Shown: positions 29,370-37,913 of the stretch, in pieces | How positions within the stretch are numbered: the first letter of the stretch is position 1 | Layout: every line of letters starts with the position of its first letter | Assembly (NCBI GenBank): GCA_024276745.1 | Contig: JAJRWN010000093.1 | Span: forward strand, 1 to 46,829 | DNA from: Bacteroidota bacterium | Lineage (GTDB): Bacteria > Bacteroidota > Bacteroidia > Chitinophagales > S012-47 | DNA length: 46,829 nucleotides | Direction of reading: 5' to 3' | Translations under genes and position numbers: made by a program | Notes under the pieces: model-generated | Databases searched by the model: none | The model's input: the letters and a program-made list of their open reading frames with translations, nothing else | What the model was told of the DNA's origin: nothing

Positions 29370-31907
29370 TTACCAGTTGATGTATTCTAACGTATCATTA
29401 ACACCTTGATTATCCCAATCAATGCGTTCACTTTCGATATTGTATTGTTTTATTTTTTCACGGATATCACTGGGTCCGTAATAATTGCTATATAATCGTT
29501 GTTTTACCAGTTTTTTATTGGTTTCTATATCCGGATCAATGGCATCGCCCGTCATGCTGACAAACAAGTTGATTAATCCATCCCGTACTTGTTCCGATTC
29601 ATTGATGCTGATTTTGCCAAAATGAAATTTACGGGCAATTACATCAAGCATATTGATTTTGAAATAATAAGCAATTTGATTATCGAAATGATGTTCACCG
29701 CAAAGCAGTAAATTAAGGGCTGTTGAACGAAGAATCATAGACGGTATAATGACCGTACTGTTTTCAATCCGGATCGTATTTTCAATCACGTTGAATTGAA
29801 TATCTTTCAGTTCTTTCACTTTCACAAAAGAAGAAAGTTGTTCGAGTGTTTCGCAATTTCTAAGCCGGCCGTTTTGCAATTTTATATCGGCCAATGCCTT
29901 TAATTTGTCTTGCAATAAATTAAGTGATTTATCAAACCATAAGTCGATATCAAGCCCTGTTTTTAAATCGCCACTCAGCATTTCATCCGTAAGATAATCT
30001 TGCCCAAAATTGTGCAATTGTGTAAATAATTCCGAAACATCCAAGTGTTTGAAATCTCCATGCAAGCGGCCAAGTAACAAACTATCCTCTTTCACCGAAA
30101 ACAATCCATCAATATTTGCCAAACCTTCGGCTACTTTTCCCGTGAGTGGATGAAAAGCAATGCTTCCGGGGATTAATTCCATATTGGTTTTAAGGTTTTC
30201 GGCTTTAAAATCTTCATAACTTAAAGTATTAATATTCACACTGAGAGTTCCATTGAAAAGATAAAAATCAGATAAATAATCAGGTGCTTCAATGGCTTCC
30301 TGATCTAAAGGTTTATCGCTTGCCCCATAATAGGTTAATAGTTTATCAATCTCCAGTTCATCGGTACTCATATTGCCCGTAATATCCATGGCTATATCAC
30401 CTGAGGGAACAAAAAACTGATCCATCCAGCGATCAAGCGTTCCAGTCCAATGAATTTCAGAACCGTTTATTTCGGCACTGATATCCTGGCCATTCAATAT
30501 TGAACCGTCAAGCGTGCAGGAACCACTAAGGTTTTTTATTTTTCTTCCGGCATACAATACATCCACATCATCAAATTGAATATGACCACCTGCCGCTATC
30601 AGTACAGATTTAGAATCAGATTCAGATATATTATCCGGTTTCAGGGTAAAAGCAAGATCCTTGAATTGAATTTGTCCATCGGCCTGATACAAACCGGTTT
30701 CTGCCAGAAAATCTTCAAGTGCATCGAGTTTAATATTGGCATTTACCAGGCCTTTAATCAAGGGATGATTCAGGTTTCTAATATCAAGACTTAAGCTAAA
30801 GGGTTCATCATCGAGCCGGGCTTTCATTTGTTTTATAATGAGTTGCGATGCTGCCGGGCTATGCGATGAACCGTTGTTGAATGACGCTTCAAGTTCAACA
30901 TCTGTAAACTCCTGATCATAGGCATAATTATAAATAGTCGCATTGCTGAGTGCCAGTGTAGCCGATATACGGGGCAAGTGGCCATTAGTGGCAGCCCCTT
31001 TGATGTTTGCCTGCAAGTCGAGCTGTCCTTTACTGTCCCAGGCAGCAATATCGCTGTGAATAGATTCAGGCATCAGGGCCATCACTGATCTTACATTCAG
31101 ATGACTGCCTTTAATACTGATATCAAGCATGTTTTCATGGCCTCTATGTTCTATCGATCCGGCAAACACATACGCTCCATCTTGCATTTCCAACTGAAAT
31201 CTTTCGCTGCTAAACCGATTATTTTTTAAATCGGCCAGTAAATGTCCGCTAAGAATTAGCGATTCATTTTCAAGGTATTTTGTATTGGCCAGTTGCATGC
31301 TCTTCGAACTGATTTTTATATCCGTATTTAAATCAAGATTTTGAGCAGAAAATAATCCGGTTAATAAAGCTTCATCAATGGTAAAATCGGCCAAATCATC
31401 ACTAAGTCTGTCGATATAGCGAATATGCAATGCTTTTATATCGGCTTCATGCAGTTGAAAAGCCAGTTTGTGATTGGTATCGCTTTCGTTTGAAACCATT
31501 GATTTAAAAATATCAAAATTGTTCTCTCCCTGCTTATTGATTAGCATATTCATTTCACTGTCTTCCAGTTTAACTTTATGAATACTAAAATCTTTACGAA
31601 TTAGCTTTAACACATTCATAGTGAACGATAATTTGGCGGCTTTCATCAGCAGACTATCTGAAGATAATGAACCTTCGAGTTCGAGACCTTCGAAGTTTAC
31701 GGTAGCATTTGGGAAATGGCGAAATAGCGAGATATTAACATTACCGGTAATACGAAACTCCGTTTTGATTTGCTTATTCACTTCTTTTTCGACCATCGCT
31801 TTCAGATCATTGCCAAAAAATCGTGTGAGCACGATGCCCGCCAGAAAAATAAGGAGAATTAAAACTCCGAAAATGATAGCAAAATATTTTAATAGTTTTT
31901 TTGTCAT
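29370..31907 (-). CDS. AsmA-family (bridge-like lipid transfer) protein
   Basis: N-terminal TM, SLFRHFP, beta-taco-type repeats, and an AsmA-like C-terminal region (FGQDYLT, LKDIQF, GEHHFDN). Confidence 0.85.
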   Translation of the reverse strand: MTKKLLKYFAIIFGVLILLIFLAGIVLTRFFGNDLKAMVEKEVNKQIKTEFRITGNVNISLFRHFPNATVNFEGLELEGSLSSDSLLMKAAKLSFTMNVLKLIRKDFSIHKVKLEDSEMNMLINKQGENNFDIFKSMVSNESDTNHKLAFQLHEADIKALHIRYIDRLSDDLADFTIDEALLTGLFSAQNLDLNTDIKISSKSMQLANTKYLENESLILSGHLLADLKNNRFSSERFQLEMQDGAYVFAGSIEHRGHENMLDISIKGSHLNVRSVMALMPESIHSDIAAWDSKGQLDLQANIKGAATNGHLPRISATLALSNATIYNYAYDQEFTDVELEASFNNGSSHSPAASQLIIKQMKARLDDEPFSLSLDIRNLNHPLIKGLVNANIKLDALEDFLAETGLYQADGQIQFKDLAFTLKPDNISESDSKSVLIAAGGHIQFDDVDVLYAGRKIKNLSGSCTLDGSILNGQDISAEINGSEIHWTGTLDRWMDQFFVPSGDIAMDITGNMSTDELEIDKLLTYYGASDKPLDQEAIEAPDYLSDFYLFNGTLSVNINTLSYEDFKAENLKTNMELIPGSIAFHPLTGKVAEGLANIDGLFSVKEDSLLLGRLHGDFKHLDVSELFTQLHNFGQDYLTDEMLSGDLKTGLDIDLWFDKSLNLLQDKLKALADIKLQNGRLRNCETLEQLSSFVKVKELKDIQFNVIENTIRIENSTVIIPSMILRSTALNLLLCGEHHFDNQIAYYFKINMLDVIARKFHFGKISINESEQVRDGLINLFVSMTGDAIDPDIETNKKLVKQRLYSNYYGPSDIREKIKQYNIESERIDWDNQGVNDTLEYINW

Positions 31908-32082
31908 GATTTAATGAAATGATGCTAACAAGTAAAAATAGGCTAAGCATTCAGCACTATAAGCGCTTTCACCCACAAGCATGATGTTGAAACGTCTATT
32001 CTATTGGTTTATGGCGGTAAGGAGGAAAAAAGATATCAGGCTGTGCAGCTTGATAAGAGGAAAACACTATTGGTGTAAGAAA

Positions 32083-32117
32083 AAAAGCTTACAATACAAA
32101 TGGTATCGTAAGCTTTT
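32083..32117 (-). terminator. Intrinsic terminator after tRNA-Ala
   Basis: AAAAGCTTAC...GTAAGCTTTT inverted repeat with an A-run on the plus strand (U-tail on minus). Confidence 0.65.
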
Positions 32118-32131
32118 AATCCATAACAAGG

Positions 32132-32205
32132 TGGAGCTAGTGGGAGTCGAACCCACGACCTCTTGACTGCCAGTCAAGCACTCTAGCCAACTGAGCTATA
32201 GCCCC
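32132..32205 (-). tRNA. tRNA-Ala(GGC)
   Basis: Reverse complement GGGGCTATAGCTCAGTTGGCTAGAGTG CTTGA-CT GGC AG-TCAAG AGGTCGTGGGTTCGACTCCCACTAGCTCCA; G3:U70 Ala identity pair; followed by CCT, so CCA is not fully encoded. Confidence 0.97.
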
Positions 32206-32215
32206 ATACATTTCA

Positions 32216-32272
32216 GGGCTATGGCGAAGTGCCTGTCCCGGTGAAAACATATCATCGGGAAGCTATAGCCCC
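32216..32272 (-). repeat. tRNA-Ala 5'-end duplicate fused to a TCCCGATGA...TCACCGGGA palindrome (nested hairpin)
   Basis: GGGGCTATAGCT (12 nt identical to the tRNA-Ala 5' end), then a 9-bp inverted repeat with 1 mismatch, closed by GCCATAGCCC. Confidence 0.8.
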
Positions 32273-32284
32273 AAAAACAGGGAG

Positions 32285-32292
32285 CAAAGATA
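32285..32292 (-). promoter_or_regulatory. -7 element (TATCTTTG) for the tRNA-Ala unit
   Basis: Plus-strand CAAAGATA about 13 nt upstream of the duplicated 5' end. Confidence 0.7.
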
Positions 32293-32381
32293 AAATTTTT
32301 TAAAACTTTTCCGGTCTATCATGAGGTATTATTCATGCGCTTGCAAGCCGGCAAGGAAAAGATGCATGCAGGAAGAAGAGA

Positions 32382-33563
32382 TTAGCGGTTTTGACTTTCA
32401 GAATGCCAGGCTTTTTGTCCGTTCCTGATGGCTTGAATGGAGGCAGAATCGTTAAAAATTTGCCAGTTAAGGCTTTTATAGGTTGTAGTTTGGTCATCGG
32501 ATGAATGAAAAAACATAATACCTTTAATGTCAGGATATATATCGGGCAAACTATCGAGGGCAGCACTAAACCATTGACTACGTTCGCCCCCCACGGCAAG
32601 ACTGGCAAATTCAGATAATATGATTGGTTTACGAAACGATGCCAAATCCTCGTAGTATTTTCCAAATATGGAAGCAAAGCTCGACCATTGGGACCAGGAA
32701 GCCACGTTACCGTAGTTTAATACCGGAATACCAATCCAATCCACATAATCATCACCGGGATAATAAGTAGCAAATTGGCCATAGGCCGGATGAGGCGACC
32801 AAACCCAAATCACATTATCGGCACCAATCAATCGAAAGCGTTCTACAACATGACGCCAGGCATCAATATAGCTTTGCGGGTCATTATTTTGCGGTCCCCA
32901 GGGATAGCGGTAAGGGTCGTTCATTTCGTGTCCGAAGCGAACAAAAACCGGAATATCTATTTTTTTTGCTTTAGCCGCCCATTCGTCAATATAGCTATCG
33001 TACATACCCTTGGCAATGGAATCCAAACCATGAATATCGCGTTGATCAATGGAAGGGATACCGGGGATATCATCGTTTGAAAAATCGGATAACCAGGGTT
33101 CCCAGGTGATAAAAGGTATAGAGCCTAAATTATAAATAGCTCTTACCATTCTGCGTGGAAATTCTTCATTTGTTTTGCTTCCCCAGGCGCTGTAAAAATG
33201 CATTAAGGGGAAAGGAATTTCTATGGAATCTTCAAGATCCAATAATTTGCGAAAGCTTTCGTCCATAGTATTATCAAAAGCCCCCCAAAGCATGGTATCT
33301 GGATTGCGCAGCAAAGCAACATTATGTCGATAAGGCTGAAACCAATTTAGTTTATCGCTTCTCAATTTCTTCCTTACTTTTATGGCCATATTATTTTCGA
33401 TGGTATTAATTTGATCGCCAAGGCCACTGAATAAATCTTCAAGCGGGCCTTTAGATTGGTTTCCGGTAAAGGTTAACAAAAACACCAGCAAGACGCCAAG
33501 AGCAAGAGCACTTAATAGTATTGCAATTCTGACAGCTGAATATTTGATACGGGATCCAATCAT
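32382..33563 (-). CDS. Membrane-anchored glycoside hydrolase family 26
   Basis: N-terminal TM; ITWEPW, RFGHEMN (acid/base Glu), WVWSP, YYPGDDYVDWIG and IILSEFA (nucleophile Glu). Confidence 0.9.
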   Translation of the reverse strand: MIGSRIKYSAVRIAILLSALALGVLLVFLLTFTGNQSKGPLEDLFSGLGDQINTIENNMAIKVRKKLRSDKLNWFQPYRHNVALLRNPDTMLWGAFDNTMDESFRKLLDLEDSIEIPFPLMHFYSAWGSKTNEEFPRRMVRAIYNLGSIPFITWEPWLSDFSNDDIPGIPSIDQRDIHGLDSIAKGMYDSYIDEWAAKAKKIDIPVFVRFGHEMNDPYRYPWGPQNNDPQSYIDAWRHVVERFRLIGADNVIWVWSPHPAYGQFATYYPGDDYVDWIGIPVLNYGNVASWSQWSSFASIFGKYYEDLASFRKPIILSEFASLAVGGERSQWFSAALDSLPDIYPDIKGIMFFHSSDDQTTTYKSLNWQIFNDSASIQAIRNGQKAWHSESQNR

Positions 33564-33585
33564 ATTCCTATTTTTTCCGGATATA

Positions 33586-33593
33586 CAAAGGTA
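33586..33593 (-). promoter_or_regulatory. Possible internal -7 element (TACCTTTG) ahead of the GH26 gene
   Basis: Exact TAnnTTTG in the 37-nt GT2-GH26 gap. Confidence 0.45.
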
Positions 33594-33600
33594 TATATAA

Positions 33601-35184
33601 TCATAAATCGTTTACATTTATTTTTTGCCAGGGTTCAGCGGCATCCAGGCGGCTCGATTCGAAAGCAGCAAACAAAGCCCCCACAGCCATCACAAAAGCA
33701 ATGCTAGCAAAACCAATCATCCCCCAGGTTTGTTCGCTAGTCAGTGATAAAACCGATTCGGGGGTATAAAACAAGCGATAAATAACCACGAAACAAACCG
33801 TAATTAAAAAAATCAGTATATGCAGCATCATCGGCCGGGCAAAAGGACTTAGACCGCGGGCTGCTTTTTTTGCCGTAGGTATATAAGGAATTTTTTTATT
33901 AATCAAGGATAATAAGAATCCAAGCAAATAAACCGGCCAATTGGCAAATTTCAATATCATACCGCGCCAGTGCAATCCTTTTTCAGTAGCGGGGTCGCAC
34001 ATCCATCGCTGAACAAAAAGGTAAATAGCAGTACCAAAACCGGCCAGTGGTAACCAACGGATCAGAAAATTGACCAAATACATATTGGCAGGCAAAACAT
34101 TAAACCAGAAAAATAAAAATGGAATAATAAGAAAAGTAAATAAACTCAGTCCGTTTATATAATAGGTTCCGATAGCGATATAAGATAATTTTTGCCAAAA
34201 ACTAAGGGTAGAAAATAAAGCAGGAACTTCGGCAAACAAAACCTCATGAACCCCTCTGGACCATTTCAGTTGCTGTTTGCAGAAAGACCCAAAATCTTCG
34301 GGCACCAAACCACGGCTTACGATAACCGGATTATACACCGTTTTCCATTTTTTTCCGTGAATACGGATAGCTGTTACCAGATCTTCGGCCAAACCAATAC
34401 CGTGGCCTCCAATGCTTTCAAGGGCTTTTCGCCTGAAAGTACAATTGGCACCAATAGCAACAGCAGCATTAAAACCATGCATACCCATTTGAGTAGGTCC
34501 GTAAAAAGTATAGGTTTGCTCAGCGGCAGCACGTGCCGTAAACGAACGGTACTGATTATAATAAGCTTGTGAGACCTGCACATAGCCCACGTTTTCATCT
34601 TTAAAATAGCCCAATGTATGATGGAGAAATTCAGGAAAAGGAATATGATCAGGATCCAGGATAAGAATAAAATCTTCTGATGTTATTTTTAAAGCTGCAT
34701 TTACTTTACCGGCTTTGGCACCCGGCAAACCGACCAATTCGAGCCAAACGGCTCCGTGTTTTTCGGCTACTTTTCTAAAGCGTTCATCTTCGGTATCATC
34801 GAGCAAATAAGTAGTATGCGGATATTGTATATTAGCACAGGCTTCGAGGGTCTTTTCAAACATCGACAGTGGCTCACCGGGCGAACTGGTTGTAAATATG
34901 GCAACACTCATACCTTCGGGAGCCGGTATGGCTTTGGGTTTGCTGATACGCAAATAGCCGATCCAACTAATCAGCATGCGTAAGATTCCCCACCAAAAGA
35001 TTAGCGTTAATAAAATATACAATATCAAATTGTTTACATGCTCTTCTCTGAACCACCAATCGGCCAGGTTTATCATACTGAGAAAACCGGCAATCATCAA
35101 GGTAAGCAGTATAAATTTATCGCGAAAACGGGGTGCTTTAGCTTCCTTAAATGTCCATAAACCGCCTGCTCTTCGTTTGTTCAT
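33601..35184 (-). CDS. Processive GT2 glycosyltransferase, cellulose-synthase (BcsA)-like, no PilZ
   Basis: LLDD, GAKAGKVN, DPDHIP, VQVSQ, LAED, QQLKW and gating-loop-like YIPTAK motifs; two N-terminal and several C-terminal TMs. Confidence 0.9.
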   Translation of the reverse strand: MNKRRAGGLWTFKEAKAPRFRDKFILLTLMIAGFLSMINLADWWFREEHVNNLILYILLTLIFWWGILRMLISWIGYLRISKPKAIPAPEGMSVAIFTTSSPGEPLSMFEKTLEACANIQYPHTTYLLDDTEDERFRKVAEKHGAVWLELVGLPGAKAGKVNAALKITSEDFILILDPDHIPFPEFLHHTLGYFKDENVGYVQVSQAYYNQYRSFTARAAAEQTYTFYGPTQMGMHGFNAAVAIGANCTFRRKALESIGGHGIGLAEDLVTAIRIHGKKWKTVYNPVIVSRGLVPEDFGSFCKQQLKWSRGVHEVLFAEVPALFSTLSFWQKLSYIAIGTYYINGLSLFTFLIIPFLFFWFNVLPANMYLVNFLIRWLPLAGFGTAIYLFVQRWMCDPATEKGLHWRGMILKFANWPVYLLGFLLSLINKKIPYIPTAKKAARGLSPFARPMMLHILIFLITVCFVVIYRLFYTPESVLSLTSEQTWGMIGFASIAFVMAVGALFAAFESSRLDAAEPWQKINVNDL

Positions 35185-36698
35185 TTGATCAACCGGTATT
35201 TTAATTGTATTCCGGCCCGGTTTCCAGTATAATAATGATTTAATTCGTAGCGATACCAGGCATGCAACTGCACAACATCATTAATATAATACGAAACATT
35301 TGCCCTGATATCGTAAGTTTTAAAACGATTTAGTGCCCAATTGGTTTGCAGCAACCATGTTCCGTTCTGGCTTGCTGAAAAGTATAACGCAGGATATTGG
35401 GATAAGGCAAACAATCCGGCATTTACTTTTACAGCAAATTCCCATTGCTCAACAGGTTTATAAGCTATATTCAGCAATAAGGAATGAATCTGCTGCCTGA
35501 AAGGAGTAAAATACGGATAATAATATCCGGCAGGATAGGCATTGGCAGCCGTATCTTTCAATAATTCGGACACCGGTAATACGGATACAAAGCGACCGGC
35601 TGCAGCATGACTATAGTTGGCTCCATAACCGGCCCGTATTTTCCATCTTGACGATTGAATCAATGGCCATAAACCCCAGGCATAATAGGATTGAACCTGA
35701 TTTTGATCTTCAAAGAAATCGCCTTGATAGCCCAACGAAAACCAAAAATGCCCGGGACGATACCACTTTAGCGAGCCATGCAAATAATAGCGCATAGTCA
35801 AGGTATCCAAAGCACTGAGATTATCCATATAAACCGAGCGTCCAAATGATGCCGATAAAACTAATTGTTTAAATAAGTTTCTATCGGCCGATAAACCATA
35901 AATTATTTTTGAACCCGAACCATTTTTATTTTGAAAATGATAAATACCTAACCAAGGTATTGTTCCAAGCCTGATTTTATTCCACCGGATAACATTCGAA
36001 ACCACTGCAGAGTAATGTCCAAAACAGGTAGTACCGGAGCCGGGTTGATCGAATTGCAAGCTTAAGTGAGGAGCCAGTAATGAAGATTTTCTTATTCCTC
36101 CTTCCATCTGCACGGTTTTTATACTATATGGTTGATTGTCGGCCTGCCATGAACCCGATAAGGAGAAATTTGCAGCAGAAGCCAAGTTTATTTCATGGAG
36201 CAGTTTTATTGCATTTTCATCGTCAGGATATGACAAAAGAAGTTTTTGCAAAATAATATTGGCTTTAACCATATTGCCCATCCAGTAGTTATTTTTTGCT
36301 TTGAGATAGAGCAATTCGATTTCAAGCGAATCGTTAATCAATAAACTGTCAATCAGCATTTCCGCTTCGTTGAGCTTTCCTGTATTTTGTAAAAAACGGG
36401 TATAATCTATGCTTAATTCACGCAGGTCAGGTTTAAGATGAATGGCTTTTTTAAAACTATTACGGGCAAATGCTGTTTTATTCAAAGCATAATTAACCTG
36501 TGCATACTTCCACCAGGCATAAACATCATCAGGATGAGCATCTAGATATCCGATGAGTAAAGTATTAGCCTCTTTAAGATGATTTTGTTGCCTCAGGCCA
36601 TTAACTTGCACCAGGGTATCGGGCGATTCATTGGTTTGTGCAAACAAAAATATATGAGCGGTAAGAAGAGTGGAAAACAGCAGGAGATATCTCAACAT
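35181..36698 (-). CDS. TPR plus outer-membrane beta-barrel protein (BcsC/PgaA-like export porin candidate)
   Basis: Signal peptide, about four TPR-like helical repeats, then aromatic amphipathic strands with YYYPYFTP; ends AGIQLKYRLIK; 4-nt overlap with the GT2 gene. Confidence 0.75.
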   Translation of the reverse strand: MLRYLLLFSTLLTAHIFLFAQTNESPDTLVQVNGLRQQNHLKEANTLLIGYLDAHPDDVYAWWKYAQVNYALNKTAFARNSFKKAIHLKPDLRELSIDYTRFLQNTGKLNEAEMLIDSLLINDSLEIELLYLKAKNNYWMGNMVKANIILQKLLLSYPDDENAIKLLHEINLASAANFSLSGSWQADNQPYSIKTVQMEGGIRKSSLLAPHLSLQFDQPGSGTTCFGHYSAVVSNVIRWNKIRLGTIPWLGIYHFQNKNGSGSKIIYGLSADRNLFKQLVLSASFGRSVYMDNLSALDTLTMRYYLHGSLKWYRPGHFWFSLGYQGDFFEDQNQVQSYYAWGLWPLIQSSRWKIRAGYGANYSHAAAGRFVSVLPVSELLKDTAANAYPAGYYYPYFTPFRQQIHSLLLNIAYKPVEQWEFAVKVNAGLFALSQYPALYFSASQNGTWLLQTNWALNRFKTYDIRANVSYYINDVVQLHAWYRYELNHYYTGNRAGIQLKYRLIK

Positions 36699-36726
36699 TA
36701 TATTTGTTCAGCATCATTAAGTGCTG

Positions 36727-36734
36727 CAAAAATA
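36727..36734 (-). promoter_or_regulatory. -7 element (TATTTTTG) for the TPR-GT2-GH26 cluster
   Basis: Plus-strand CAAAAATA about 29 nt upstream of the ATG. Confidence 0.55.
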
Positions 36735-36812
36735 ATCAGTATCTGATTTGAAAACAATCTGATGGCAGAAAAAGATTTTTGTTCAGATACACGTGTCAAA
36801 ATAAAATAAGTT

Positions 36813-37913
36813 TTATTCCTTATAAGATTGGGACACATTAAGTTGTTCGATTAAGGATGCAGCTCTTTCAGAAGCACCTGGTTTTCCCAGTTTTATACGC
36901 AGCGATTCATATTTTTTAAATATTTGTTTTCGCTTGTCATCATTCAACAAAAGTTTAAGCTCTTCAAGCATATTATCAACTGTCATTTCCTTTTGAATGA
37001 ATTCGCATAAAACAGCTTCATTCATCACCAGATTGACCAAAGAGATATAATTTACTTTTACCAGTCTTTTACCAATTAAGTAAGAGATTAAACTGCCTTT
37101 ATAGCAAACCAATTGGGGAACATTCAACAAAGCTGCTTCGAGGGTAGCTGTACCGGAAGCGACCAAAGCAGCTTTTGATTTTTTTAATATTTGAATGCTA
37201 TCGTCAAAAACAATATGCAGATTAGGCTTGTTTGAAAAACGGGCATAATATTCAGTGCCGATATGCTTCATAGCGGCAATCACAAAAGATTGTTCCGGAA
37301 CACGGCCGGCTACTTCAGCCATTAAAGGTAAATGTCGTTTAATTTCCTGCTTACGGCTACCGGGCAACAAAGCTATGATATTGCGGTTTTGATGCTCTGA
37401 TGTGTTCGAAAAAGCCGGGTCATCAAGCAGCGGATGTCCCACATAATGAGCTTCGATATTAAATTTTTTATAAAACGCTACTTCAAAAGGCAGAATGCAC
37501 AGCATTAAATCTACATCACGCTTAATATTTTTTACTCTTGATTGATGCCATGCCCATAATTGCGGAGAAATATACCAAACTACTTTGAAACCTTGTTGAT
37601 GTGCCCATTTTGCAATTTTCAGATTAAATCCGGGATAGTCAACCAGAATCAAAATATCAGTATGTTCTGTAAGAATATCATGTTTGCATTGTTTTAAAGC
37701 TTTCAAGATAGCAGGCAGGTTTTTAGCCACTTCCCAAAAACCCATAAAAGCAAGGTCTTGATAATGATGCAATAGTTTAGCCCCGGCCTTTTGCATTTTA
37801 TCGCCTCCCCAGCAAATAAAATTTGCATGTTTATCATGCTGCATTAAGGCTTTCATTAAGCGGGCCGCATGCAAATCACCGGAAGCTTCACCGGCCAGCA
37901 AGAAATAATTCAT
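36813..37913 (-). CDS. lpxB: Lipid-A-disaccharide synthase
   Basis: AGEASGD, VDYPGFN, YISPQLWAW, VGHPL, LPGSR and SGTATLE motifs. Confidence 0.97.
   Translation of the reverse strand: MNYFLLAGEASGDLHAARLMKALMQHDKHANFICWGGDKMQKAGAKLLHHYQDLAFMGFWEVAKNLPAILKALKQCKHDILTEHTDILILVDYPGFNLKIAKWAHQQGFKVVWYISPQLWAWHQSRVKNIKRDVDLMLCILPFEVAFYKKFNIEAHYVGHPLLDDPAFSNTSEHQNRNIIALLPGSRKQEIKRHLPLMAEVAGRVPEQSFVIAAMKHIGTEYYARFSNKPNLHIVFDDSIQILKKSKAALVASGTATLEAALLNVPQLVCYKGSLISYLIGKRLVKVNYISLVNLVMNEAVLCEFIQKEMTVDNMLEELKLLLNDDKRKQIFKKYESLRIKLGKPGASERAASLIEQLNVSQSYKE

Follow-up and report, generated by a model that had tools for sequence, protein, structure and literature searches.

Synthase-dependent secretion of polysaccharides is described in print for four or five proteobacterial systems, namely those for cellulose, poly-N-acetylglucosamine (PNAG), alginate and Pel and the NfrB-type system. 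The surface glycans of Bacteroidota are usually credited to Wzx/Wzy loci. Here we describe a cassette of three genes in a 46,829-nucleotide stretch of DNA from a Bacteroidota bacterium (contig JAJRWN010000093.1; the whole stretch is hereafter called the window). The genes encode a tetratricopeptide-repeat (TPR)/beta-barrel porin, a glycosyltransferase of family GT2 and a glycoside hydrolase of family GH26, and the cassette is apparently a real and conserved exopolysaccharide system that has gone unstudied. It is one that works like Bcs, Pga and Pel, with a synthase, a periplasmic glycanase and a TPR-porin, yet it falls outside the families that define each of them.

The Bcs system (BcsA-BcsB-BcsZ-BcsC; Escherichia coli, Cereibacter sphaeroides) has the same kinds of parts: a multi-pass processive GT2, a periplasmic glycanase and a TPR/beta-barrel porin, encoded in an operon. 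It is worth stressing how the two differ. The cassette has no BcsB in the 80 loci studied here and no PilZ domain, and no cyclic di-GMP (c-di-GMP) machinery was found in its genome. Its glycanase is a membrane-anchored GH26, whereas Bcs has a soluble GH8; its porin is only 505 aa long, with about four TPRs, and its synthase carries QQxKW instead of QxxRW and scores far under the CelA cut-off.

The only described operon that we found in which a BcsA-like, PilZ-less GT2 is paired with a GH26 is the rhizobial APS operon. On rhizobial plasmids its genes run in the order uxs1-uxe-apsS-DUF995-GH26-DUF995, beside an AraC regulator, and passages in two reports state that it directs an arabinose-containing polysaccharide (PMC7902896, PMC12560781). 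The synthase ApsS aligns to the cassette GT2 over 427 residues with 26% identity. Unlike the cassette, APS has genes for a UDP-xylose synthase and an epimerase, two DUF995 (ApsH) genes and no TPR-porin; neither uxs1/uxe nor DUF995 genes are among the conserved neighbours of the 80 cassette loci.

Another PilZ-less, BcsA-like GT2 is BgsA of Sinorhizobium meliloti (BgsBA), which makes a non-cellulosic mixed-linkage beta-glucan, the class to which the lichenase-like GH26 of the cassette points. BgsA is paired with the membrane-fusion protein BgsB and, according to PMC13438883, also with TolC. In contrast to the cassette, it comes with neither a TPR-porin nor a GH26, and clustering of the 80 loci revealed no membrane-fusion protein gene in the cassette.

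Our literature search, outside which lay many PMC articles, most subscription journals and supplements, returned no report on a TPR-porin/GT2/GH26 cassette, and the operon survey of Bundalovic-Torma (2020; PMC7112194) mentions neither 'Bacteroidetes' nor 'GH26'. A GH26 of Actinoplanes (PMC13390465) was set aside as a precedent, as it is part of a Wzx/Wzy cluster. New here are the use of the APS precedent as a control, a CDP-sugar variant of the cassette with changed nucleotide-binding motifs and a modelled contact between synthase and hydrolase. To these we add the finding of no c-di-GMP machinery in the genome and the recognition of the cassette as an insertion.

Conservation of the three genes

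The open reading frame (ORF) list, Pfam and TIGR00215 agree with the preliminary description of this DNA, which had noted three co-oriented, tightly linked genes between lpxB and tRNA-Ala. The ORF coordinates also return the spacing given there, with the porin and GT2 genes overlapping by 4 nt (35181-35184) and the GT2 and GH26 genes separated by 37 nt (33564-33600).

Among 6049 candidates scored, 2041 were relatives of the GH26 at E <=0.001; the best 120 of these 2041 show 50-91% identity, and nearly all of them are unnamed. A two-motif scan with one genome per species (185,579 species) gave 403 stretches, 391 of which encode a relative. The locus counts below refer to the best 80 of those loci. 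The GH26 is present in all 80, the GT2 lies upstream in 78 (49-72% identity, tblastn), and the porin lies upstream of the GT2 in 75 (22-30% identity, tblastn), always on the same strand. The loci missing the GT2 or the porin (L007, L033, L046, L064 and L078) are on contigs that end within about 1 kb upstream of the GH26, and the porin-GT2-GH26 order is kept in every locus with enough upstream DNA. Because the same order and strand recur in the 80 related loci, we regard the three ORFs as real genes rather than chance ORFs.

Clustering of all 1024 ATG-started ORFs of at least 90 aa from these loci left only three conserved gene families: the porin, the GT2 and the GH26. The further clusters were either ORFs that lie within the three genes, antisense or in an alternative frame, or lineage-specific neighbours found in at most 11 loci. 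No BcsB-like gene is among the conserved families. A hidden fourth component was considered and rejected, as the genes that recur beside the cassette in sub-lineages have unrelated housekeeping roles (a Na/H exchanger, a flavodoxin-like protein, an M43 peptidase with a type IX secretion system (T9SS) tail, RodA, PBP2, a BNR-repeat protein and a metallo-beta-lactamase fold). Neither SusC nor SusD is among the recurrent neighbours. The neighbourhood survey thus bears out both the co-occurrence of the genes elsewhere and the earlier statement that the cluster has no BcsB-like copolymerase.

The labelled hosts are mainly Bacteroidota (Algoriphagus, Aquiflexum, Chitinophagaceae, Saprospiraceae and Prolixibacteraceae), with Ignavibacteriota and one Calditrichota metagenome-assembled genome besides. 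L002, L022, L045 and L046 are on contigs labelled Saccharibacteria, Limnohabitans or Janthinobacterium. Their cassettes nest among those of Bacteroidota (L022 beside Algoriphagus), and they are probably mis-binned contigs rather than transfers.

The synthase

In a sequence search of the PDB, the GT2 matches BcsA structures at 2.8e-31 across residues 60-370. Hydropathy gives seven hydrophobic segments, of which two precede the cytosolic GT domain and five follow it. Pfam finds no PilZ match in the protein, which stops about 20 residues past its last transmembrane segment. Together with the Pfam and NCBIfam matches and the motifs given below, this upholds the view of the protein as a BcsA-like multi-pass synthase without PilZ.

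The canonical motifs of processive GT2 enzymes are D, DxD, (T)ED, QxxRW and a gating loop, FxVTxK. In an alignment of 30 GT2 homologues with 69% mean column identity, LLDD (127-130), DPDH (177-180), AED (266-268), QQxKW (304-308) and IPYIPTAK (432-439) are invariant in every row. The first four align with DDG, DxD, TED and QxxRW of E. coli BcsA. The fifth stretch lies beyond the BcsA alignment, and we take it to correspond to the FxVTxK loop.

A tree with characterised synthases (BcsA, BgsA, ApsS and one cyanobacterial BcsA-like enzyme) puts the cassette GT2 family in a clade of its own with 98% support, apart from BcsA, BgsA and ApsS. ApsS is on a separate long branch, and BgsA clusters with BcsA, not with the cassette enzymes.

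These results bear on whether the product might be plain cellulose, made by a minimal Bcs-type system in which a GH26 would replace the GH8 BcsZ and a short TPR-porin would replace BcsC. BcsA is indeed the best solved-structure match of the synthase, CelA (TIGR03030) its best NCBIfam match and BcsC the best fold match of the porin. However, the CelA match reaches 155.2 bits against a cut-off of 699.1 and that to NF008558 130 bits against 992, which leaves the protein outside the UDP-forming cellulose synthase equivalogs. BcsB and PilZ are absent and the hydrolase is a lichenase-branch GH26 instead of a GH8. Furthermore, the acceptor motif FFCGS of BcsA reads AIGANC in the cassette GT2, whose clade is far from BcsA. 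We therefore hold cellulose to be quite improbable as the product.

Elsewhere in the genome there is a second, distant GT2 (G000:C156:11750-12727), 26% identical to the cassette synthase over residues 105-422.

The hydrolase

The GH26 scores 54.2 bits against PF02156 (cut-off 20.2) and keeps both catalytic glutamates together with the HE motif, so that its assignment to the family, made earlier from the sequence, stands. Hydropathy marks a strongly hydrophobic N-terminal anchor at residues 13-31. This is followed by a conserved linker of about 85 residues (about 35-118), in which G39, P40, E56, R68, W74, G94, D97, E111 and D112 are invariant, and by the catalytic domain (about 119-360) with H212 and E213 of the HE motif and the nucleophile E318. 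H212, E213 and E318 are invariant in 23 out of 23 aligned homologues, and in the alignment with Lic26A the two glutamates fall on its acid/base (HE) and its nucleophile (EF).

Passages in PMC10470212 assign to GH26 beta-1,4-mannanases, beta-1,3-xylanases, mixed-linkage xylanases and one beta-1,3/1,4-glucanase, and a passage in PMC6556568 treats the lichenases as a separate branch within the family. The closest solved relative of the cassette enzyme is the GH26 domain of Clostridium thermocellum CelH (Endoglucanase H), that is Lic26A, at 1.9e-33 and 119 bits; the next single-sequence match, a Bacteroides mannanase, has 35 bits. With the GH26 family profile, Lic26A reaches 159 bits (1.1e-45) versus 45 for the best mannanase and 32-34 for xylanases. 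The APS hydrolase ApsE served as a control. It gave no match to Lic26A (its best hits, a mannanase and a 1,3-xylanase, have 22 bits), and it matches the cassette GH26 with 62 bits and 24% identity. By these comparisons of sequence, the cassette GH26 belongs to the lichenase (Lic26A) branch and ApsE lies outside it. Lic26A itself, a beta-1,3-1,4-glucanase with the same HE and EF catalytic residues, is a secreted cellulosomal enzyme of degradation, whereas the cassette GH26 is anchored, carries the conserved extension and is encoded with a synthase.

Several homologous genes appear short or broken. In L038 (5721-6122) and L042 (5983-6339), the GH26 ORF has only 133 and 118 aa, yet tblastn spans nearly the whole protein, and in a genome of the phylum sample (G099:C58:53075-54220) there is a TGA within the GH26 match. 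Frameshifts, broken copies or errors of assembly may account for these cases.

The porin

The porin begins with a hydrophobic, signal-like segment (signal peptide at about residues 1-20, hydropathy). A PDB sequence search returned only TPR designs and TPR proteins, and a comparison of folds was needed. Folded as a single sequence, the protein reached a predicted local distance difference test score (pLDDT) of 43.4, with the barrel region below 50, and hence it was refolded with an alignment of 34 homologues drawn from related loci. The resulting AlphaFold2 model (pLDDT 90.8, predicted template modelling score 0.79) has helices at 28-174 with about four TPRs and an all-beta C-terminal barrel at 176-503.

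The five top Foldseek matches of the model in the PDB are BcsC (9b8a at 2.3e-17, 9b8h and 6tzk), PgaA (4y25) and PelB (9h80_M), and generic porins begin only at 5e-9. VIA-align gave the same three proteins, with Z-scores of 26.3 for BcsC, 25.9 for PgaA and 25.2 for PelB, followed at Z <=19.5 by matches confined to TPRs and at Z <=17.5 by other barrels (BamA 17.5, CymA 16.2, OmpG 16.0). PgaA superposes on residues 168-504 of the model with a root-mean-square deviation of 2.5 Å over 275 residues. Since the model tops out on BcsC, PgaA and PelB with a gap to the rest, the protein is best placed, on its modelled fold, in the structural class of porins that serve synthase-dependent exopolysaccharide systems, as a member with a short TPR domain. 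The barrel that the preliminary description had attributed to the TPR protein is thus recovered by structure prediction.

At the level of sequence the protein belongs to none of these families: it scores 19.1 bits against the PgaA equivalog TIGR03939 (cut-off 366.65), and the C-terminal Pfam family of BcsC gives no match at E <=0.01. The likeness to PgaA and PelB of the PNAG and Pel systems lies in a TPR domain beside a superposable barrel, whereas the partner enzymes differ and there is no deacetylase.

A fold specific to exopolysaccharide exporters also speaks against the idea that nothing is exported. On that view, the product of the GT2 would be a lipid-linked oligosaccharide or a glucan, either periplasmic or cyclic, or else the GH26 would be an adjacent enzyme of nutrient acquisition. 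For pseudomonads, it has been proposed that orphan BcsA-like proteins lacking PilZ make cyclic glucans (PMC10237404). However, at least three labelled phyla have the three genes in strict co-linearity. The GH26 carries a membrane anchor, not the lipoprotein or T9SS signals typical of degradative enzymes of Bacteroidota, and the lack of SusC/SusD among the recurrent neighbours likewise argues against nutrient acquisition. In view of these points, we find a system without export very improbable.

Predicted contact between synthase and hydrolase

Prediction of a GT2-GH26 complex gave an overall score of 0.69 (0.69, 0.63 and 0.70 in three runs), and the controls gave 0.00, 0.08 and 0.00. The mark that we use for such scores is reached by 116 of 157 solved complexes and by 2 of 215 mismatched pairs, counts that are only a rough calibration here, where the inputs were custom alignments (30 rows for the GT2 and 23 for the GH26). 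The three runs have at least 83% of contacts in common, with a partner pLDDT of at least 84. The PDB entries that match the GH26 hold either the enzyme on its own or a receptor fusion construct, with no synthase complexes among them, which makes it unlikely that the score stems from a memorised solved complex.

The modelled interface joins residues 48, 369-375 and 470-488 of the GT2 with residues 44-68, 101-108 and 130-146 of the GH26. According to hydropathy, all of these GT2 residues lie in loops opposite the GT domain, on the periplasmic side, and the GH26 residues follow the anchor. The model supports, but does not show, docking of the GH26 on the periplasmic loops of the synthase.

A bolder version would make the GH26, instead of an accessory trimming enzyme, an integral subunit at the periplasmic exit of the synthase, replacing BcsB and, as a retaining enzyme, cutting or transglycosylating the chain to set its length or linkage, and would add a switch of one subclade to a CDP-6-deoxyhexose donor. 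We consider this combination unlikely.

Apparent absence of c-di-GMP machinery

Neither GGDEF nor PilZ domains were found in the whole genome (2.3 Mb, 164 contigs, 90% complete). The same domain searches were positive in control genomes (GGDEF in 8 out of 14, PilZ in 5 out of 14). As neither domain turned up in a genome that is 90% complete, c-di-GMP signalling appears to be absent from it. That the cluster holds no c-di-GMP receptor, as noted earlier, fits both the GT2, which has no PilZ domain, and the genome as a whole.

Proposed mechanism

We consider it probable that the cassette is a three-component synthase-dependent exopolysaccharide system, an explanation that takes in synthesis, processing, export, the kind of polymer, the absence of BcsB and c-di-GMP control and acquisition of the cassette. 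The GT2 would use a cytosolic nucleotide sugar to polymerise a beta-linked glycan and, by analogy with BcsA, thread the chain through its own transmembrane channel. The GH26, anchored by its one N-terminal helix, is predicted to dock on the periplasmic loops of the synthase through the conserved linker and the catalytic domain. There it may cut the emerging chain for release, for length control or to clear stalled polymer, as BcsZ, PgaB and PelA do. The short-TPR/beta-barrel porin, whose fold is modelled, would then take the chain across the outer membrane. In this organism the system would run without BcsB and without c-di-GMP control, and the 4.6-kb cassette would have been acquired by insertion between lpxB and tRNA-Ala.

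A subclade linked to CDP-sugar genes

In 11 out of the 80 loci, the cassette is joined to three extra genes, in three arrangements. The first gene of the trio encodes a glucose-1-phosphate cytidylyltransferase, rfbF (TIGR02623, 424 bits, cut-off 300), the second a CDP-glucose 4,6-dehydratase, rfbG (TIGR02622, 502 bits, cut-off 278), and the third an SDR epimerase/reductase. The trio lies between the GT2 and the GH26 in L012 (3179-5954), L026, L041, L071, L074 and L079, and its last gene is seen in the cut locus L033. It is upstream of the porin gene in L023, L068 and L069, and downstream on the other strand in L036.

A quick maximum-likelihood tree was built from 74 GT2 proteins, with seven loci excluded because the ORF was cut, short or without a defined start. 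The 10 trio-linked proteins in it form one group (SH-aLRT 88), and clustering this tight arose in none of 500 label shuffles. The GT2 of the window is in the other main clade. In all 10 trio-linked proteins, S101 of the TTSSPGEP motif is replaced and the DD pair at 129-130 is broken, and both are intact in the 64 others. The two motifs align with PTYNE and DDG of BcsA, presumably nucleotide-binding motifs there. The GH26 proteins of the trio loci show only one consistent difference, A260 to S in 8 out of 11.

At the level of sequence, these observations suggest that the synthase of the subclade has switched its donor nucleotide, to a CDP-6-deoxyhexose. To our knowledge, no CDP-dependent processive polysaccharide synthase of such a type has been described. 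We rejected the CDP-glucose pathway as a general requirement of the cassette. As rfbF scores above the cut-off in just 25 out of 75 cassette genomes and was not found in the genome of the window, the CDP-sugar pathway is a trait of the subclade rather than of the whole family.

Nature of the polymer

The preliminary description had proposed a non-cellulose beta-glycan, either a beta-mannan or glucomannan or a mixed-linkage polymer. The two options fared differently: the closeness of the GH26 to Lic26A speaks for the mixed-linkage one, and the low mannanase scores (at most 45 bits) speak against the other. As the GH26 sits with Lic26A, far from the mannanases, we favour a gluco-configured and possibly mixed-linkage glucan over a mannan. 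That the polymer is a gluco-configured beta-glucan of the lichenan type, with 1,3 and 1,4 linkages, is close to an even call as judged from homology, and a beta-mannan or glucomannan is disfavoured on the same grounds.

Several observations weigh against this picture of the system and its product. In each of the 74 family members examined, a lysine takes the place of the QxxRW arginine. The cassette GT2 clade is on a long branch (more than three changes per column), equidistant from BcsA/BgsA and from ApsS, and for this reason the GT2 tree is silent on linkage. The TPR domain of the porin has only about four repeats; BcsC has about nineteen. The choice of polymer comes solely from the nearest characterised relative of the GH26, which is about one-third identical (judged by eye). 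The sole characterised GT2 and GH26 operon, APS, yields an arabinose-containing polymer and not a glucan, and one subclade of the same family is linked to CDP-6-deoxyhexose genes. Finally, the genome has a homologue of UDP-xylose synthase (UXS) that shares 54% identity with S. meliloti Uxs1, and a search of it for GalU gave nothing above the family cut-off, so that pentose donors are possible.

The APS operon and the CDP-sugar subclade show that GT2 and GH26 pairs are not restricted to glucans. The product could thus be a non-glucan beta-glycan, such as an arabinose-containing pentosan as in APS, a xylan or a 6-deoxyhexan, with a GH26 matched to it. The best-covered plasmid matches of the GT2 are to ApsS of the uxs1-uxe-apsS-apsH1-apsE(GH26)-apsH2 operon, the GH26 family includes 1,3-xylanases and mixed-linkage xylanases (passages in PMC10470212), and both the UXS homologue and the 11 trio-linked cassettes fit a product of this kind. 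However, the cassette GH26 is nearer to Lic26A than to ApsE or the xylanases (119 bits versus 62 and at most 34), 69 out of the 80 loci have no linked sugar-nucleotide gene, and rfbF is as scarce among the cassette genomes as given above. A non-glucan product is, in our judgement, somewhat unlikely.

The UXS homologue is at G000:C92:1927-2859, among several SDR sugar-nucleotide genes on that contig; this neighbourhood is probably a separate surface-polysaccharide locus.

Insertion between lpxB and tRNA-Ala

An orthologue at E <=1e-60 was found in 4 of 400 other genomes sampled evenly across the phylum, and none of the same-order genomes listed in that sample has one. In a genome of the same genus (G476, L112), tRNA-Ala(ggc) follows lpxB after 47 nt, and the flanks on both sides are syntenic with 63-86% identity. 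In two further relatives, G485 (L113) and G479 (L114), tRNA-Ala(ggc) also comes directly after lpxB. Because the tRNA gene directly follows lpxB in all three relatives, the 4.6 kb from 32206 to 36812 is an insertion in this lineage.

The G+C content is 0.40-0.43 in the bins covering 32001-35000 versus 0.36-0.39 in most neighbouring bins; it is 0.399 at 30001-31000. No integrase was seen, and no long direct repeats flank the cassette. When the spacers were aligned with the lpxB-tRNA spacer of the relative, no clear junction appeared. Integration at a tRNA gene was rejected as a general rule, as tRNA-Ala is near none of 60 other cassette loci.

On the minus strand, 12 nt of the 5' end of tRNA-Ala (GGGGCTATAGCT) occur a second time at 32261-32272, upstream of the true tRNA by 55 nt. 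In front of this copy is TATCTTTG, similar to the TATATTTG that precedes the tRNA in the same-genus genome. The copy could be a rearrangement remnant or a small duplication.

Locus layout

The features of the locus are given in Table 1; the three genes of the cassette are minus-strand ORFs. The upstream neighbour, at 36813-37913, is lpxB (Pfam LpxB 317.5 bits; TIGR00215 286.5 bits, cut-off 190). Ahead of the porin gene, the spacer carries TATTTTTG at 36727-36734, a match to the pattern TAnnTTTG, which we take to be the Bacteroidota -7 element. A riboswitch or other RNA element in the cassette spacers was ruled out by an Rfam search, in which the tRNA alone was matched. Of the limits drawn earlier for the cluster, 32382 to 36734, the start holds, and the end has to be moved: it lies 36 nt past the first ATG of the porin gene (36698), inside the spacer.

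Table 1. Coordinates of the cassette and adjoining features in the window
Feature	Position	Strand	Details
TPR/beta-barrel outer-membrane export porin (predicted)	35181..36698	-	505 aa; Pfam TPR families, fold
Inner-membrane GT2 synthase, probably processive, BcsA-like, PilZ-less	33601..35184	-	527 aa; Pfam GT2 + Cellulose_synt
Membrane-anchored periplasmic GH26 glycanase (predicted), lichenase branch by sequence	32382..33563	-	393 aa; Pfam GH26
tRNA-Ala(ggc)	32130-32205	-	downstream of the GH26 gene
Spacer between lpxB and the cassette, likely promoter region	36699..36812	-	114 nt; sequence read
Spacer between the GH26 stop and tRNA-Ala	32206..32381	-	terminator-like hairpin at 32255-32274 and 12-nt tRNA 5'-end copy at 32261-32272

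Significance

Compared with the synthase-dependent systems in print, the cassette is pared down to three genes, with neither a co-polymerase nor a c-di-GMP receptor. Relatives in 391 of 185,579 representative genomes, as retrieved by the two-motif search, indicate that it is widespread, mainly in Bacteroidota and with some occurrences in Ignavibacteriota and Calditrichota.

The predicted contact between synthase and hydrolase offers a testable answer to how a BcsA-like enzyme may function without BcsB. The CDP-sugar-linked subclade, in turn, is a natural experiment on the donor specificity of processive GT2 enzymes. If its switch of donor is true, the subclade would have a CDP-dependent processive synthase making a 6-deoxy-beta-glycan. 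And if the product of the cassette proves to be a mixed-linkage beta-glucan, these three genes would be a self-contained route to a commercially interesting polymer.

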